Origin: Desulfatiglandales bacterium
GTDB taxonomy: Bacteria; Desulfobacterota; DSM-4660; Desulfatiglandales; Desulfatiglandaceae
Assembly: GCA_963666345.1 (NCBI GenBank)
Contig: OY762721.1
Location: 3,936,001 to 4,000,000, forward strand
Reading direction: 5' to 3'
Length of the DNA: 64,000 nucleotides
Shown: positions 21,001-42,000 of the stretch, one piece after another
Layout: each line of letters begins with the position of its first letter
Position numbering within the stretch: position 1 is the stretch's first letter
Made by a program: the position numbers

Positions 21001-24000
21001 CGAATCCTATGGCCTGGTACAGGTGGCTGTGGAGATGGAAGGAAAGCAGCCGGGTGCGAAACAGATTGCAAGGCTGATTGAAAGGGCACGAAAAGGAGGT
21101 GTAAAGGTGATCTTTGTGCAGCCCCAGTTCTCCGAAAGGGATGCCGGAACCATAGCTGAGGCTATCGGAGGGGCGGTTATAAAGATGGATCCTCTTCCAA
21201 GGGATTATATCGGCGGTCTGGCGACAATGGCCGAGAGCATCAGGGAGAATCTCTAATGGCAACGGAAATCGGAAAAAGGCCTGTTATCAACCTGGCCGAT
21301 GTGTCGTTTTCATATAACGGCCACACGGTTTTAAGGGATGTCAACATGAGTGTCTATGAAAAGGACTTCCTCTCCGTGGTGGGTCCGAACGCAGGAGGCA
21401 AGACCACACTCCTGAAATTGATTCTGGGGTTGTTAAAACCGACCAGGGGCAGGGTAACGGTCTTTGGAGAGCAGCCGTCAAGGGTGCGTCGCCGGATAGG
21501 TTATATGCCTCAACAGGCGTCTCTTGATCCGCTTTTCCCTGTCTCGGTCAGGGATGTCGTTTTGATGGGGCGGATGGGTAGCGGCATGGGGCTGGGGCCT
21601 TTCAGGAGAAAGGACAAGGCGGCGGCAGACGGTGCGCTCAAAAAGGTGGGATTAAGCGAAGTGAAGAACCGATCCTTCTCAGATCTTTCAGGTGGCCAGA
21701 GGCAGCGCGTCCTAATTGCAAGGGCTCTCGCCTCGGAACCGGAACTGCTTCTGCTGGATGAGCCTACCTCAAATGTCGATTCAGTGATGGAAACGGCATT
21801 TTTTGAGATCCTCAAGGAGTTAAACGACAGCATCACGCTGCTGCTGGTTACTCATGATCTCGGCTTTGTATCATGCTATGTCAAGAGCGTTGCATGCGTA
21901 AATATGAGGGTAATCGTTCATCCCACAAGTGAGATCTCCGGTGAGATGATAAATGAAATCTACGGGGCTGACATGAGGATGGTGAGACATGATCACCGAT
22001 GCTCGGAGGAGGGGCATGAATGGTTGAATTCCTGACAGACCTTCAGGTTCATGCCTTTCTGCAAAACGCGCTTTTGACCGGCATTTTGGCAAGCATAGCC
22101 TGTGGAATTATCGGAAGTTATGTGGTTACCAGGAGAATCACCTATGTCGCCGGTGGTATCGCACACAGTGTCCTGGGGGGTATGGGCGCGGCCAGGTATC
22201 TTGAGGTCGTCTATGACTGGGAGTGGATTCATCCTCTTTACGGTGCGGTTGCGGCGGCACTTTTGTCCGCCGCCGTCATAGGACTTGTGGGCCTGAAGGC
22301 CAGGCAGAGGGAGGATACCGTCATAGGGGCTGTCTGGGCCATCGGCATGGCAACCGGTATCTTATTCATATTCAAGACACCGGGATACAACGAAGACCTT
22401 ATGAGCTATCTGTTCGGTAATATCCTCATGGTTTCATCTTCCGAACTTTGGCTGATAGGGGGTCTTGATCTGCTCGTCGTTGTTGCGGGACTCCTGTTTT
22501 ACAACCAGTTGATGGCGGTCTGTTTTGATGAGGAGTTCGCAAGACTGAGGGGTATCCATGTGGAGTTCTTTTACCTGCTGCTTCTCTGCCTAACCGCCTT
22601 GACCGTGGTATTGCTTGTTACAGTGGTGGGTATCGTCATGGTAATAGCCCTTCTTACGCTTCCCGTCGCTGTTGCAGGGCACTTTTCACGTAGATTGTGG
22701 CAGATGATGGGCCTTTCCGTGATATTTACCTCCGCCGTAACAACAGGGGGGCTCGTATTGAGTTACGGTCCTGACCTGCCGGCAGGGGCGACAACCATCG
22801 TGCTGGCAGGTGTCTTATATATTCTGGTTTCGGTATGTTCCAGGTTTCGGAGAATAAGGCGAAGTGAGTGATGTCTCGGCAAGGTTTGCAGATTCAAGCC
22901 ATTGGAAGCGGCAGACCTGTTTTATAAGGGGCCTTCGAACAACCTTGCGACAGCATCAAATGAATCCCTTATCTTTTTACCCACCTCTGCCAGCCTTGAT
23001 TTTGAGGACATGTGGGAACTTCCGTCCAGGTAAAGGTCTTGATTGAGTTCGATCTGGATACCTATCTTTCCTGTCGTTTCAAAATCATGGCCGTAATGAT
23101 ACATGATATATCCGCCCCTGTAGGGGTAATTGAGAGAAACTGAGAAACCGGATTTTTCAAAGGCCTCTTTTATGCCGTTCATGGTGTCGGGCGGGCAGGT
23201 GATGCCGCCTGCGCCGGGAACCCTTTTCCCATGTCCGTCTCCATAGTTGCTGAGGGTGATGTCACTTCTTTTCCTGCCGGCATCAGGGGCATCCCTTGGG
23301 CCGGTACCATTGAGCGAATGACAGTCAAAAATAGCCTTTATCCCCGGATTTTCAAAACGGCCGGAAAGTTTTTCGTGAAATGGCCGGTAATACATGTCGA
23401 TTCTGTCTTCAGTTTGCTCCTTATCCGGCTCAGAGCCTCTGTAAAAGATCCTCCTTCCATGGTAATCCGTCTTTGCTATTACGCCCTTTTCATCAAGCCT
23501 GCCCGGAGTCCTGTTAAGATCCACAACCAGACGGCTCCATTCTGCGCGCAGGACCGCGGCGGCCGGCAGTGCCCCGAATATCTCACCTGTTCCTCTGTCG
23601 ACGGATTCCAGTATCTCCTTGTCGGTGAGTGCTATGGCGGGCCTGATATCATCCGGAACGCGGTGAGAGCAGTGGGGTATGGATAAAACAAAAGGGTAGG
23701 GCATAAGACATCTCCTTGAATTGACTTGATAAACCTATTAATTCCTTTCAGTGAACCTGGCCACTTGAAAATGGTTTCTGCCGAGATTGTGGAGCCTTTC
23801 GGCCTGCGCGTCCGTACATCCGGGCCGGGATTGTTCAATCAATCCTCCGTCTGAAAACAGGCGACAAAATGATCCTTCTCAATCTCCTTTAAAAGGGGCC
23901 TTTGTCTGCTGCATTCAAGCCCTTTTGAAACTGCGCACCTTTCATGAAAGGGGCAACCCTGCAGATCGTAGTGGCCCCTGTGCCGATTGGTGAGAAGCGT

Positions 24001-39000: not shown

Positions 39001-42000
39001 GATTTCAATCCCTTTGCTCATGCCTGAAAGGTGGTAATTGGCACGGAAATCGCCCTGTTTCGGTTTTAACTCCATCGATGCAACCGCTTTATCTCCCAGG
39101 ACAAAGACCCTTATGTCCTTTCTGCCTTGGGGCGGAATAAATTTTTGCAGAAGGATGCCTTTGTTGATATCGAGATGATTTGTGGCTATATCACGGCAGT
39201 CCTTCCTTGATCGGACAAGCATTATTCCCTGCCCCTGTCTGCCGCTCACCTGTTTTGCCACAAAGGGGTAGCCGCCGATATGATCGGCCGCTTTCATGAG
39301 CACGTCTTCCGAGTTCGCCAGCATCGTGTCCGGGACCGGAATCCCGGCACCGGCAAGACTTTGAAGCGTGAGATATTGATTTCTGGAAACAAGAACCGCT
39401 TCAAAGTCGTTGGCCGATGGGATTCCCATTAGAATCAGATGACGAAGCAGGGCCAGGCATGAATCCCTTACCTGTGCGCCCTGGCGGGGCACTATGATAT
39501 CAGGCCTGCCTTTTTCAAGGTCACCGAAAAGGGTGTGATCGCCCTTAATAAGCCCCGACCAGGCCGTGTACGGATTTATCAGTATGGCGCCGTGTCCTCG
39601 CTCGCGCGCGGCTGCCGACAACCGCATATTCGGGTGGTAGCCGGCGTTTCTTGCTGAAATTATTCCGATAGATATTCCCATGAGGTTCCTGGCTTGGTTA
39701 TATCAGGAAATGTGCCGGGTGCCAAAGAAATTTCTTGGTCCGTAAAAGGTGATCCCGTTATCAATCATTGAGCATCCAGCGCGGTATCCATACCCCGACA
39801 TCCTTGCCGAGTCGCTCGCTGTAATAGACGGCCACGTTCTTTGTCCCGGTCCGTCGCGCAATCTCCTGCGCCACGAGATTGTCCGAGCTGATGGTGGAAT
39901 AAAGCCTTTTTTCGCCCACCCTTTCGGTAAGGCCTTTTACCAGAACGCTTCCGATTCCAAGGCCCCTGTATTGCGGTCTTGCGGAGTTATAGCCCCGTTC
40001 GACAAAATCGCCCAGGTCGATCCCGGTCTTGCCTTTCATATATTCGATAAATTCCCGCCTCGGGTTCTTGAGGCTGACAGTGCCTGCTATGGCTCCCTTT
40101 TCCATGGCAAAACCTATGAGATATGCCCTTTCAAGATTATGTCTTATCCACTTTGCGCCTACCGCGCCTCCCGCCTCAACCAGAAGGCATATCTGTTCAA
40201 ACGATTGAGGTGATAAATCTTCCGGTTTTTTATAGTGGTAAGTAATGCCTTCGCCTATGGTATCGATTGAAGTGCCTGATTCATCGATCCTCCAGCGCAT
40301 GACCTTCTTTGTGCCGCTCCTGTTTATATGAACGAGCAGGTGAAAGATGTCCATGCATCCCCTCCAGAACGGATAACCGGGCAGAGGCGTTACCTTGCCG
40401 TATGGAGGCTCTTCTGATTCGATATGATGTAATGTCCGGCCGGACTTTGTATCGGAGGAATCCACCGTTGCCCAGGAGTGACAGTAATGAGGATTATTTG
40501 AGGCGTAATTCAAAAGACCCTGCAGCAGTTCCGGGTTCGCCTTTTCATATGTTACCAAGTGATTCCAGATTCCGCATTTTGAGGCGGACCACAGAGTCTT
40601 TGTCAGGGATCCCGGGCCGCTCGCAGGCATGTCCATGGGCGCGTGCCACTTGATGAGTCTTACCCCGGAGCTGAAAAGGGCGGAAAGGACGTCTTTGCCG
40701 GGCTTATATTCAAGCGGGGATTCGACGGCAATGCAGAAAGGTTGACACTGGCCCGAAAGTCCGGTTGCGCATGAGGGCCGTATGGCCTTATGGATGTTCA
40801 GGATATCTTTTATATCGCTGATTTTTTTATCAGCACCCGGTTCGGAAATCAGACTATCGAGGAATTTTCCGCGTGAACCGCCCATGCCGGCCTCGATAAC
40901 CTTTTCAGGACAGAGATAGCCCCCCGCCGGCAGCCCCCTTGTCTTCTTGTAATAATTGACGGGTCGTTTTTTGAAACCAAGTTTTTCCAGCAGGACTGAC
41001 AGCGCCCTCTCATCATTTGGCGGGACAAGGCTTCCTGAAAACCCCACTGCCTTTTCCAGGAGCGCCGGATCACCCATAAGGGCGATGTGACATGCAAATC
41101 CCCTTTTGCGGCATATGCCGGACAGGGTAAGGGAAGCGGGGATCTGGCTTTGGGCGGATATATCGAGGATCAAAAGGTCTGATTTGCCGATGCCGGATAA
41201 ATCCATGCCTTTTTCAAAAAAATCGATAAACGGGTTTTTCTCCGGATTTTGGACAAGATCGGCAAGTCCTTTCGGTTCAAAGATGTCGGGGCTTGAAAAT
41301 CCGTTCCAATGGATGCGGGAAGGATAAAAGGCAAGGGAAAGATCATCACAAAGTGATTCTATCTCTGAGGCCTTTGTAATATACGAAGAAGGTTCGTAAA
41401 AATCCTGACTTTTGAAGAAATCAAGGTCTCTTCCTGCCTGAACAATCCTTTGCTTAAACTTTTCCCCGGATTCTAATACCTCAAATACCCTTGTCCTTGT
41501 TTTATCATCCCTTTTTTCAAATACACCTGATTTATCTTTTTCTTTTATCAGCCCTGTTATCCGTTCGAACCTTTTGGAATCAAAGAGATGGTTTTTGAAA
41601 AAATCGATACCCGCGTCGTATCTTTCCGTTGTGAGGCCCTCTTGATCGAATATCCGGAGCGATTCACCAATCGGAGGGGGTGCGGACGGATTTATCAGGG
41701 GAGGATATATTATCAGGATTCTGAAAAGGTTTTTTTTATTCATAGGAATGAGTGTCCTGATAAAGTTGAATTTATTTATCCGATTTCCGTAATATACGAT
41801 TATACTATATCAGCGCCATTGTTCAAGCTTAACGGCCTTGTAAAAGGAATTCTTATTTCTTCTTTGTTCCGTTAGCGGTATCATTCGGCCGGTGCGTGCT
41901 TTGCCGGTACTTTGGCCAAAATACTTGAATTTTCAGGAGGTATATGCGACTTACAGTAAGTTGCTTGCCCGGTTTGTAAGGATTTCACCCCTTTTCCCAT

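Follow-up and report, generated by a model that had tools for sequence, protein, structure and literature searches.

The window analysed here is a 64,000-nucleotide stretch of the genome of a Desulfatiglandales bacterium (contig OY762721.1, positions 3,936,001 to 4,000,000), which is assembled in one contig of 4.16 Mb and is 96.7% complete. An earlier note had described a locus at 22922-41743 in which gshB forms an operon with an oligopeptide ABC transporter and an N-formylglutamate-amidohydrolase-like (FGase-like) enzyme, next to RimK, a B12-radical SAM (rSAM)-like/GNAT protein, a TLC/cNMP protein and an FGE-domain protein. All of these genes are present, every one on the minus strand, with intergenic gaps of at most 181 bp. 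A PP-loop gene (37553-38680) had gone unlisted, and the true OppC frame is 25804-26724, the longer-listed frame at 25847 being a wrong call. The features are as follows:

39761..41743, minus strand: degenerate B12-type rSAM domain with a C-terminal GNAT acetyltransferase, 660 aa (PF00583)
38770..39681, minus strand: RimK-family ATP-grasp ligase, 303 aa (TIGR00768, 184.7 bits; best PDB match 7QYR, E 6e-50)
37553..38680, minus strand: predicted QueC/QatC-like PP-loop adenylating enzyme, 375 aa (SGGIDS and Cx9CxxCxxC motifs, Foldseek; no Pfam family)
36642..37424, minus strand: enoyl-CoA hydratase (PF00378)
35111..36460, minus strand: membrane class III nucleotide cyclase, MASE10 plus cyclase (PF20970, PF00211)
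31741..34959, minus strand: NTT/TLC-type MFS transporter with HEAT repeats and a cyclic-nucleotide-binding domain (NTT-HEAT-cNMP), 1072 aa (PF03219, PF13646, PF00027)
30790..31737, minus strand: FGE-sulfatase-domain protein (PF03781)
29685..30686, minus strand: GshB-like ATP-grasp ligase of the S-P-G-G lineage, 333 aa (PF02951 and PF02955; alignment to 1GSA)
27915..29618, minus strand: family 5 solute-binding lipoprotein (SBP) of an ABC importer (PF00496)
26764..27741, minus strand: OppB-type permease (PF00528 and PF19300)
25804..26724, minus strand: OppC-type permease, start codon uncertain (PF00528, E 2e-28)
24852..25859, minus strand: OppD-type ATPase (PF00005 and PF08352)
23839..24864, minus strand: OppF-type ATPase (PF00005 and PF08352)
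22922..23704, minus strand: FGase-like hydrolase, 260 aa (PF05013, 144 bits)

Is the gene annotated as glutathione synthetase a true gshB? Its product consists of GSH-S_N and GSH-S_ATP domains and keeps the ATP/Mg residues. The best-scoring model is NF009110 (291, cut-off 408); NF003573 is exceeded by 4.7 bits (276.7, cut-off 272) and TIGR01380 is not reached (251.2, cut-off 299.05), the Legionella control GshB scoring 425 and 405 with the latter two. In the alignment to 1GSA, the equivalents of Escherichia coli R86, R210, E281, N283 and S286 are invariant in 58 of 58 relatives. In the same 58, the E. coli loop S286-P-T288-x3-E292 is replaced by S-P-G-G-I/V-P-R, with G299 and R303 in place of T288 and E292, which we take to be acceptor-loop residues of the E. 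coli enzyme; single mutants at these two positions reportedly have mild effects. Across 136 aligned rows, T occupies position 288 in 76, and 55 of those 76 have E at position 292. In the tree the ligase belongs to its own 14-row clade (99/97), outside the 26-row clade of canonical GshB (100/96). Judged by its loop residues and by the trees, the ligase is a separate S-P-G-G lineage rather than, as had been supposed, a true GshB bereft of GshA. Because the S-P-G loop is common to RimK and the tree position is basal, the sequences tentatively suggest that true glutathione synthetases descended from such glutamyl ligases, the root lying on a long branch.

The host genome has no match at E ≤ 1 to the three gamma-glutamylcysteine ligase (GshA) families PF04107, PF04262 and PF08886, and tblastn with a Legionella query (593 bits on PF08886) gave a best E of 0.47, in agreement with the earlier note. 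Its statement that other carriers lack GshA as well holds for most of them. A further 54 genomes were searched, comprising 52 near-complete carriers, G060, and G102 with its different GshB type. PF04262 was found in none of them, nor was PF08886, for which the control also gave no match anywhere; PF04107 was found in three, once at full length (G120) and twice as weak partial matches, and it is likewise matched in G547, a carrier that belongs to another family. Absence of GshA in carriers is the rule, not an absolute. Glutathione transferase (GST_N) numbered zero in four of four carriers tested against 14 in a control genome with canonical GshB, and no glutathione reductase or GrxC exceeded the cut-off in these four against one each in the control. 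In three of three genomes of the phylum that carry canonical GshB, a GCS2 ligase is present and the NTT protein absent. Since none of the four carriers has the transferase, the reductase or the glutaredoxin, salvage of gamma-Glu-Cys, which had been named as a fallback, is unlikely. Glutathione might still be made here, from imported gamma-Glu-Cys or by a non-GshA route such as a proline-pathway bypass, a GshA-independent route being proposed in an excerpt of PMC3462692; the NF003573 score, the retained catalytic residues and the adjoining peptide importer fit such a reading, but the missing glutathione-using enzymes, the position outside the canonical clade and the three canonical genomes make it extremely improbable. 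The absence of GshA from the host, the S-P-G-G loop and the separate clade all uphold the view that this is not de novo glutathione synthesis: the gene annotated as glutathione synthetase, to judge from these features, almost certainly does not make glutathione. As the automatic call rests on such a slender margin, where glutathione metabolism has been claimed for these anaerobes from their genomes, the claim is probably mistaken.

The module recurs in relatives, as had been claimed. The GshB-like ligase, 68-78% identical across the order, is matched at E ≤ 1e-20 in 85 of its 209 genomes, and the SBP gene comes after it in 77 of the 79 distinct loci whose downstream sequence extends for 2 kb or more. 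Co-inheritance in 123 near-complete genomes of the order, 53 carriers and 70 non-carriers, supports a conserved peptide-ligase/uptake module: the NTT-HEAT-cNMP transporter is present in 52 carriers and no non-carrier, GNAT in 48 and one, a third ATP-grasp, absent from the host genome, in 47 and none, the FGase in 37 (missing in 16) and five, a PhpK-like rSAM in 36 and one, and the PP-loop family in 27 (missing in 26) and two, although such counts overstate the association because kin are not independent. The NTT-HEAT-cNMP protein is the most constant partner of the ligase, ahead of RimK or the ABC importer. With the third ATP-grasp, further ligase-like genes in the module loci of one family (f26) and the QueC-like enzyme, "two-ATP-grasp" was an undercount. 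The module also occurs in at least six further families; outside the order, its parts were found at 12 of 12 fetched S-P-G-G loci and at none of eight S-P-T loci. Several module loci adjoin CO dehydrogenase/acetyl-CoA synthase genes, a solitary gshB-like gene was seen in two of 33 long loci, and one carrier, Desulfosarcina variabilis Montpellier (L149), is cultured.

The SBP shares 47-66% identity with module orthologues against 20-25% with three other SBP5 genes of the host, and by this measure it belongs to a dedicated importer of the module. The tightest gene arrangement across the order consists of the gshB-like gene, the importer and the FGase, as would be expected if the system merely scavenged environmental N-acyl or gamma-glutamyl peptides, which hydrolase and ligases would recycle by activation or detoxification; GNATs, too, commonly inactivate imported amino-acid analogues. 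Yet a system with three to five enzymes that spend ATP on amide formation, plus one or two radical SAMs, has a biosynthetic character, and at the 12 distant loci the importer cluster is near the gshB-like gene in seven and not adjacent in five. We consider scavenging very unlikely. RimK is near the gshB-like gene in five of these 12 loci.

The remaining genes differ in constancy. The cyclase, with QYIGD/MVGD at what are presumably the base-specificity sites, is a variable accessory present in 16 of 33 long loci, and the NTT protein also occurs without it; a check for Pycsar defence (a two-gene unit of PycC cyclase with PycTIR/PycTM effector) gave domain-level PADLOC matches only. The FGE-sulfatase-domain protein, an accessory in 19 of 33 long loci, is probably exported, judging by a signal-peptide-like N-terminus read by eye. 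The enoyl-CoA hydratase, which had no match in 119 other loci, was rejected as a member and is a local passenger. The NTT-HEAT-cNMP protein has 11 hydrophobic segments; according to an excerpt of PMC5381601, such NTT-HEAT-cNBD fusions are widespread and have yet to be characterised, and control by cAMP is proposed for them.

The rSAM-like/GNAT protein has a GNAT domain and, as its structural neighbours in the Atlas, B12 radical SAMs (TM 0.52-0.55 by query), but the host protein has lost the Fe-S motif. It is homologous to 759-aa relatives keeping CYWGKCxFC (E 5e-52), with a gap at the motif region; the three cysteines are missing from it and 11 related short forms, and 16 forms that are longer or more distant have them. 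The intact rSAM of relatives, absent from the host genome, best matches the PhpK-like model TIGR04479 (300-323 bits, cut-off 600; next family about 100-110). In one genus an asparagine-synthase-like amidotransferase adjoins the rSAM, as in the pathway for N-acetylglutaminylglutamine amide (NAGGN; TIGR03103/03104/03106). The FGase-like hydrolase scores 72 with TIGR02017 (cut-off 279) and looks intact, H11, D36, D127, H129 and E219 being conserved in 33-35 of 35 relatives.

RimK passes the subfamily model TIGR00768 (cut-off 143.4) but not the equivalog NF007764 (170.6, cut-off 331), and matches TIGR04443 and NF040720 below cut-off. A RimK glutamate ligase of the S6 type would call for an S6 that ends in Glu-Glu (the EE rule); in the host S6 ends in EEI, and in EE in only one of three carriers looked at. 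The PP-loop enzyme (model pLDDT 89.8) has no Pfam match at E ≤ 0.5 except a chance S27 hit; its best Foldseek match is QatC (9Y01, E 1.7e-6), and it aligns with Cap9 (Z 12.2, rmsd 3.1, 169 aligned) and QueC (Z 12.1, rmsd 3.4, 176 aligned). SGGIDS and Cx9CxxCxxC, the latter one residue longer than the QueC-type Cx8, are invariant in 70 sequences, and the YPDC, VPxRN and YxQxHxxE motifs, given for QueC (PF06508 cluster 1) in part of PMC13329287, are missing.

These enzymes might instead act on a protein tail, the ligases adding glutamate or other residues to a C-terminus by RimK/RimB or tubulin TTL/MATCAP logic, GNAT, rSAM and the QueC-like enzyme modifying the same target, and the hydrolase removing the tag. 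RimK-family membership fits, as do the MATCAP peptidase adjoining sister GshB-like lineages, the action of QatC and Cap9 on protein N-termini (excerpt of PMC13329287) and the enrichment of glutamylation genes in brackish genomes (excerpt of PMC10219603). We judge it unlikely, since it leaves the ABC importer and the NTT carrier unexplained, the host has no MATCAP, the S6 tails do not conform, and locus maps (clustered ORFs ≥100 aa) reveal no conserved small target gene. It is quite unlikely, too, that the module matures a cofactor or a nucleotide conjugate, placing glutamyl tails, methyl and amide groups on a pterin, folate or nucleoside core, with NTT and the family-5 importer moving the product. 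RimK relatives glutamylate F420 and pterins (the sub-threshold TIGR04443 and NF040720 matches), QueC acts on a nucleobase, characterised NTT carriers move nucleotides (excerpt of PMC5381601), and some loci neighbour the CO dehydrogenase genes; still, the QueC substrate motifs are missing, the cluster has no core-building genes, and absence from 70 of 123 near-complete relatives would be odd for a core cofactor.

The module, with its amide-forming enzymes, its hydrolase and its two transporters, probably builds and recycles a small peptide. More specifically, it may synthesise a small N-acylated glutamyl-type peptide with ATP-grasp ligases, cap it, re-import it and de-acylate it, by NAGGN-like logic under cyclic-nucleotide control, a reading we find evenly poised between right and wrong. 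GNAT would acetylate an amino acid or peptide N-terminus, and the RimK-type and S-P-G-G ligases would add residues, most likely glutamate, via acyl-phosphate intermediates. The QueC-like enzyme would adenylate a carboxylate and turn it into an amide cap; the third ATP-grasp and the intact PhpK-like B12 rSAM of most relatives would add a residue and a methyl, respectively, steps lost in the host. Controlled by cyclic nucleotides, the NTT-HEAT-cNMP carrier would take product or precursor through the membrane, and the importer would retrieve the product for the FGase-like enzyme to strip its N-acyl group for recycling. At family level all enzymes of the module make, modify or break amides, and the GshB-like ligase combines intact ATP/Mg residues with an altered acceptor loop. 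So does the joint rise, in Photobacterium damselae at low salt, of rimK (52-fold), chromosome-II gshB (38-fold) and the adjacent QEGLA gene (28-fold) (excerpt of PMC10308900) speak for this reading. On the other side, no single tailoring gene is universal, some loci have no RimK or importer near gshB, the FGase occurs in non-carriers, and characterised NTT carriers move nucleotides and not peptides. The Photobacterium lineage, moreover, is a related one with MATCAP, which the host lacks, and induction at low salt is opposite to a classic osmolyte. A salinity-regulated solute or glutamate store would be the most likely physiology, yet it is the weakest link. A bolder extension, that sediment Desulfobacterota possess an undescribed natural-product pathway with up to five ATP-dependent ligases for an N-acetylated peptide, PhpK-like methylation, QueC-like amidation and a cyclic-nucleotide-gated NTT-HEAT-cNMP carrier, the host keeping a reduced version in which the rSAM is dead and true GshB having arisen from such glutamyl ligases, is rather unlikely as a whole.

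The spread of the module and the 68-78% sequence identity of its GshB-like ligase across the order point to an abundant metabolite of anoxic sediments. Two questions become testable: what do P-G-G-type GshB paralogues ligate, and what do NTT-HEAT-cNBD proteins carry? The latter family gains a candidate pathway and, if the carrier reading is true, its first function.

How does the module compare with known systems? E. coli GshB (EC 6.3.2.3, PDB 1GSA) has the same two domains and shares ATP/Mg and several substrate residues, but the present ligase differs in T288→G and E292→R, its clade, its multi-enzyme cluster and the lack of GshA and glutathione users. The uncharacterised PRK12458/NF009110 triad of GshB-like, FGase and QEGLA/MATCAP genes (Sinorhizobium meliloti pSymB-type record, Photobacterium) shares the P-G-G loop and FGase neighbour, but reaches 480 (Photobacterium) and 501 (Sinorhizobium) with NF009110, and the module, in its own clade, adds NTT-HEAT-cNMP, GNAT, rSAM, PP-loop, RimK and ABC importer; in the host PF08014 (weak control) found no MATCAP/QEGLA, and tblastn with two MATCAP proteins matched the FGase part only. 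The NAGGN pathway likewise combines GNAT, ATP-grasp, an amide-forming PP-loop enzyme, hydrolase and transporter, but there is no orthology: the module GNAT is fused to rSAM, the ligases are of RimK/GshB types, the amidating candidate is QueC-like and the hydrolase FGase-like, and a cyclic-nucleotide-linked carrier is added; the sole TIGR03103/TIGR03104 match among 25 window proteins was at domain level, on RimK, with 40 bits against a cut-off of 569. In phosphinothricin-tripeptide logic, a precursor is acetylated, ligated, methylated by PhpK, deacetylated and exported, which resembles the relatives' PhpK-like rSAM with GNAT and amidohydrolase, but the rSAM is under cut-off, ATP-grasps replace the NRPS, the host lacks the PhpK-like rSAM, and PEP mutase (TIGR02320) was found in none of five carriers. 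RimK/RimB poly-alpha-glutamylation, as outlined in part of PMC11957791, also pairs a RimK-family ligase with a hydrolase under environmental regulation, but no retropepsin was seen in the locus, which has extra ligases and transporters and an S6 tail off the EE rule. Finally, the NTT-HEAT-cNBD proteins in the excerpt of PMC5381601 have the same architecture but come there with no pathway context, whereas the module NTT co-occurs almost perfectly with the ligase.

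The window carries 14 genes in a row on the minus strand, reading from 41743 down to 22922 and nowhere more than 181 bp apart, in a genome that is a single contig with 96.7% completeness; the G+C content of the cluster is 49.8% versus 48.0% for the genome.

Genes of the cluster in order of reading, all on the minus strand (basis of naming in parentheses)
Gene 1, 39761-41743: radical SAM-like/GNAT protein, rSAM-GNAT (domain matches)
Gene 2: RimK (domain and family matches)
Gene 3, 37553-38680: 375-aa PP-loop protein (without annotation)
Gene 4, 36642-37424: enoyl-CoA hydratase (domain matches)
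Gene 5, 35111-36460: membrane class III cyclase (domain matches)
Gene 6: NTT(TLC)-HEAT-cNMP protein (domain matches)
Gene 7: FGE-domain protein (domain matches)
Gene 8, 29685-30686: GshB-like ligase (domain and family matches)
Genes 9-13: family-5 ABC importer (domain matches)
Gene 14: FGase-like hydrolase (domain matches)

Enoyl-CoA hydratase is a passenger outside the module. A two-subunit CoA transferase at 42032-43799 diverges from the module, and these two may possibly form one unrelated acyl-CoA pathway. The stretches 16418-22871 and 47191-49713 contain GroEL, TspO, a DUF6765 gene and a ZnuABC-type metal importer, the last converging on the module; neither Pfam nor NCBIfam matches the 242-aa ORF at 18881-19609, and Rfam gives no match within 20000-48000. 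A scan for promoters and terminators performed at chance level (24 versus 20.7±4.5 and 18 versus 21.2±4.9), so its candidates at 41826-41799 and 30750-30723 carry no weight.

The module is real and conserved. A ligase match was found in 85 of 209 genomes of the order, with full-length copies 68-78% identical; one of the 85, in G102, is of the MATCAP type. Together with the window, 119 fetched loci reduce to 91 distinct ligase loci, and the substrate-binding protein (SBP) follows the ligase in 77 of the 79 that extend 2 kb or more beyond it. Among 33 long loci, the ABC importer is present in 31, RimK in 30, NTT in 20, FGE and a third ATP-grasp in 19 each, FGase in 17, cyclase and rSAM-GNAT in 16 each, the PP-loop protein in 12 and a separate radical SAM protein in 10. 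The ligase is solitary in two. In L116 and L140 a ligase of this lineage stands alone, the 10 kb around it being free of module genes; by eye, a small cNMP-domain-like ORF follows it in L116. In whole-genome searches of 123 order genomes at least 90% complete, divided by the match table into 53 carriers and 70 non-carriers, NTT-HEAT-cNMP is found in 52 carriers and no non-carrier, the third ATP-grasp in 47 and none, GNAT (rows chosen by matched region) in 48 and one, PhpK-like radical SAM in 36 and one, FGase in 37 and five, and the PP-loop family in 27 and two; these counts are given without a test statistic because the genomes are kin, and those for RimK and ABC come from loci. Most exceptions fall on one genome, G009, where there may be an assembly gap.

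Beyond the order, 48 of 401 sampled genomes of the phylum matched the ligase, 24 of them at 53% identity or more, and 21 of these 24 belong to six families outside the order. All 12 loci fetched from the 21 have the S-P-G-G motif of the window lineage together with two or more parts of the module (NTT 8, ABC 7, RimK 5), versus the S-P-T of canonical GshB and no module part in all eight fetched from the 24 weaker matches. Where relatives carry names, most belong to Desulfatiglandales or Desulfobacterales. The conserved module that the earlier note had reported in Desulfobacterota is borne out and is larger than was claimed. In two genomes of f26, a family outside the order, NTT is absent from the locus and present elsewhere; f26 has, in addition, an ATP-grasp of the L-amino-acid-ligase type and a second, weakly matched one that is circularly permuted, and up to five ATP-grasp-type genes surround the same importer (L221-L224). 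In several genera the module adjoins genes for CO dehydrogenase/acetyl-CoA synthase and a pterin-binding methyltransferase (L080, L083, L059, L060, L118). Near-identical ligases titled Bacteroidales, Anaerolineales and Acidobacteriota (L072, L076, L096) are nested among Desulfobacterota sequences, and represent either mislabelled bins or transfer.

What kind of ligase is at the center of this module? Its bit scores are 276.7 for NF003573 (cut-off 272), 251 for TIGR01380 (299) and 291 for NF009110 (408). The equivalents of R86, R210, E281, N283 and S286 of Escherichia coli GshB are invariant among 58 relatives, and in all 58 T288 is replaced by G and E292 by R, two residues that we take to be part of the gamma-glutamyl site. 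Single mutants of T288 or E292 reportedly had mild effects; no paper on the role of the pair was found within CC-licensed PMC papers and bioRxiv. T occupies the T288 position in 76 of 136 aligned GshB-like rows, and 55 of those 76 have E at the E292 position. An IQ-TREE tree of 55 rows, selected from a larger FastTree set plus 20 phylum loci, places the window enzyme inside a 14-row clade (99/97), and a separate 26-row clade (100/96) contains the GshA-linked Legionella enzyme. Judged from its sequence, the ligase is not the GshB named earlier, at least not a canonical one, and the change of E292 to R would fit an acceptor that lacks a free alpha-amino group. P-G-G paralogues of Sinorhizobium and Photobacterium differ in their surroundings: they adjoin FGase and a MATCAP peptidase, whereas MATCAP is absent from the window's genome by the PF08014 profile, whose control is weak, and by tblastn with two MATCAP proteins. 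The one functional hint in the literature searched concerns a sister lineage: in Photobacterium damselae under low salt, rimK is reported as 52-fold, the chromosome-II gshB as 38-fold and the adjacent QEGLA gene as 28-fold up (PMC10308900). From its neighbor gene, this gshB is probably of the P-G-G type.

The claim that the genome has no GshA has held: PF04107, PF04262 and a third family, PF08886, have no match at E≤1, and the best hit obtained with Legionella GshA, a positive control that reaches 593 bits on PF08886, has an E of 0.47. Among 54 other genomes, PF04107 is matched in three, one full-length and two weak and partial, one of the latter adjoining asparagine synthase; PF04262 is matched in none, nor is PF08886, but there its control is silent. 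In G079 and G069 (L152:3-2202 and L153) an asparagine-synthase-like gene is directly followed by a short divergent GCS2-like protein, and the two genes are a separate amide-ligase pair. None of four carriers has GST_N, of which a control genome carrying canonical GshB has 14 copies; nor has any of the four a glutathione reductase or GrxC above cut-off, each of which the control has once. In three of three canonical-type genomes of the phylum, a GCS2 ligase is present and the NTT protein absent; G547 is an S-P-G-G carrier, yet has a GCS2 match. That the system makes glutathione is extremely improbable.

The earlier gene list omitted the 375-aa PP-loop protein, which has no Pfam or NCBIfam family. 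Its structure model (pLDDT 89.8) matches QatC in Foldseek (E 1.7e-6) and Cap9 and QueC in VIA-align (Z 12.2 and 12.1). SGGIDS and Cx9CxxCxxC are kept and the QueC substrate motifs, as tabulated in PMC13329287, are absent, which suggests that the protein would work like a carboxylate-adenylating amide former and not as QueC. An anti-phage reading was rejected, as the PP-loop, rSAM-GNAT, FGE and GshB proteins have no PADLOC match.

The protein described earlier as B12-radical-SAM-like/GNAT does have both homologies, but its Fe-S motif region is gone: the longer relatives to which the 660-aa protein aligns keep CYWGKCxFC, and exactly that stretch is missing here, as it is in 11 other short forms. 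A homologue search with rSAM-GNAT yields at least five proteins. Ten short forms have known context, and a window-type PP-loop gene is adjacent in eight and a third ATP-grasp in none. A single-sequence fold of rSAM-GNAT reaches pLDDT 32.7, and predicted binding of the dead radical SAM domain to the PP-loop enzyme (score 0.01) gives no verdict. The ligases of the proposed two-ATP-grasp system are present, but two is an undercount for the relatives, most of which have the third ATP-grasp; this and the intact separate radical SAM proteins are absent from the window's genome. The window-type PP-loop protein (E≤1e-30) is confined to G009 and the six carriers that have no third ATP-grasp, and 44 of the 47 carriers with a third ATP-grasp have an intact radical SAM protein. 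Loci with the PP-loop form take mostly basal positions in the ligase tree, but twice they fall inside groups of third-ATP-grasp loci. A strict swap between the two is refuted at the family level by a 30%-identical PP-loop paralogue, which occurs behind the NTT gene in seven of eight distant NTT loci, as well as in 20 carriers with the third ATP-grasp; exclusivity is limited to the PP-loop orthologue. In many carriers (L159:4985-7829 and six similar loci) the NTT gene lies away from the ligase, behind genes that by eye are queA/tgt-like and secDF-like; after it come the paralogue and one more radical SAM protein, with CWYGKCKFC. For the separate radical SAM proteins the best model is PhpK P-methyltransferase in four of four (300-323 bits, cut-off 600); PEP mutase is absent from five of five carriers, which rules against a phosphonate pathway. 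In three loci of genus g78 (L168:10864-12624, L170, L172) an asparagine-synthase-like amidotransferase abuts the PhpK-like protein.

What could these parts make together? By family, every conserved enzyme is an amide maker, decorator or breaker, and two transport systems are co-inherited with them. There is about an even chance that the system synthesizes and turns over a small N-acylated glutamyl-type peptide. GNAT would acetylate, the RimK-type and GshB-like ligases would extend and the QueC-like PP-loop enzyme would cap by amide formation, with a third ligation and a methylation as further, optional steps among relatives. That the ligases instead tail a protein is rather unlikely. The NTT carrier, a member of the NTT-HEAT-cNBD fusions described as widespread and uncharacterised (PMC5381601), would move the peptide under cyclic-nucleotide control; a cofactor or nucleotide conjugate as the product is distinctly unlikely. 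Adenylate cyclases usually have K and D at two positions, where the cyclases at 35111-36460 and 45432-46991 have Q (QYIGD, QFLGD) and V/L; several module loci also have the Q type and others a DEFIGD type, and from these residues the two Q-type enzymes may make a product other than cAMP. The ABC importer would retrieve the peptide; its SBP has weak PDB matches of a generic kind (the best is AppA, E 1e-30), and mere scavenging by the system is very unlikely. The FGase-like enzyme, with five putative catalytic residues conserved in 33-35 of 35 relatives, would de-acylate the peptide. A RiPP (microviridin-like) reading is improbable in view of the short intramodule gaps and the importer-type ABC, short ORFs falling outside the clustering.

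No description of this cluster was found within CC-licensed PMC papers and bioRxiv, and one may exist in the subscription literature. The cluster belongs to none of the known systems tested. It works similarly to the NAGGN pathway, yet is not a member of it by the tests applied; we take that pathway and other ATP-grasp peptide modules to be its functional analogues.
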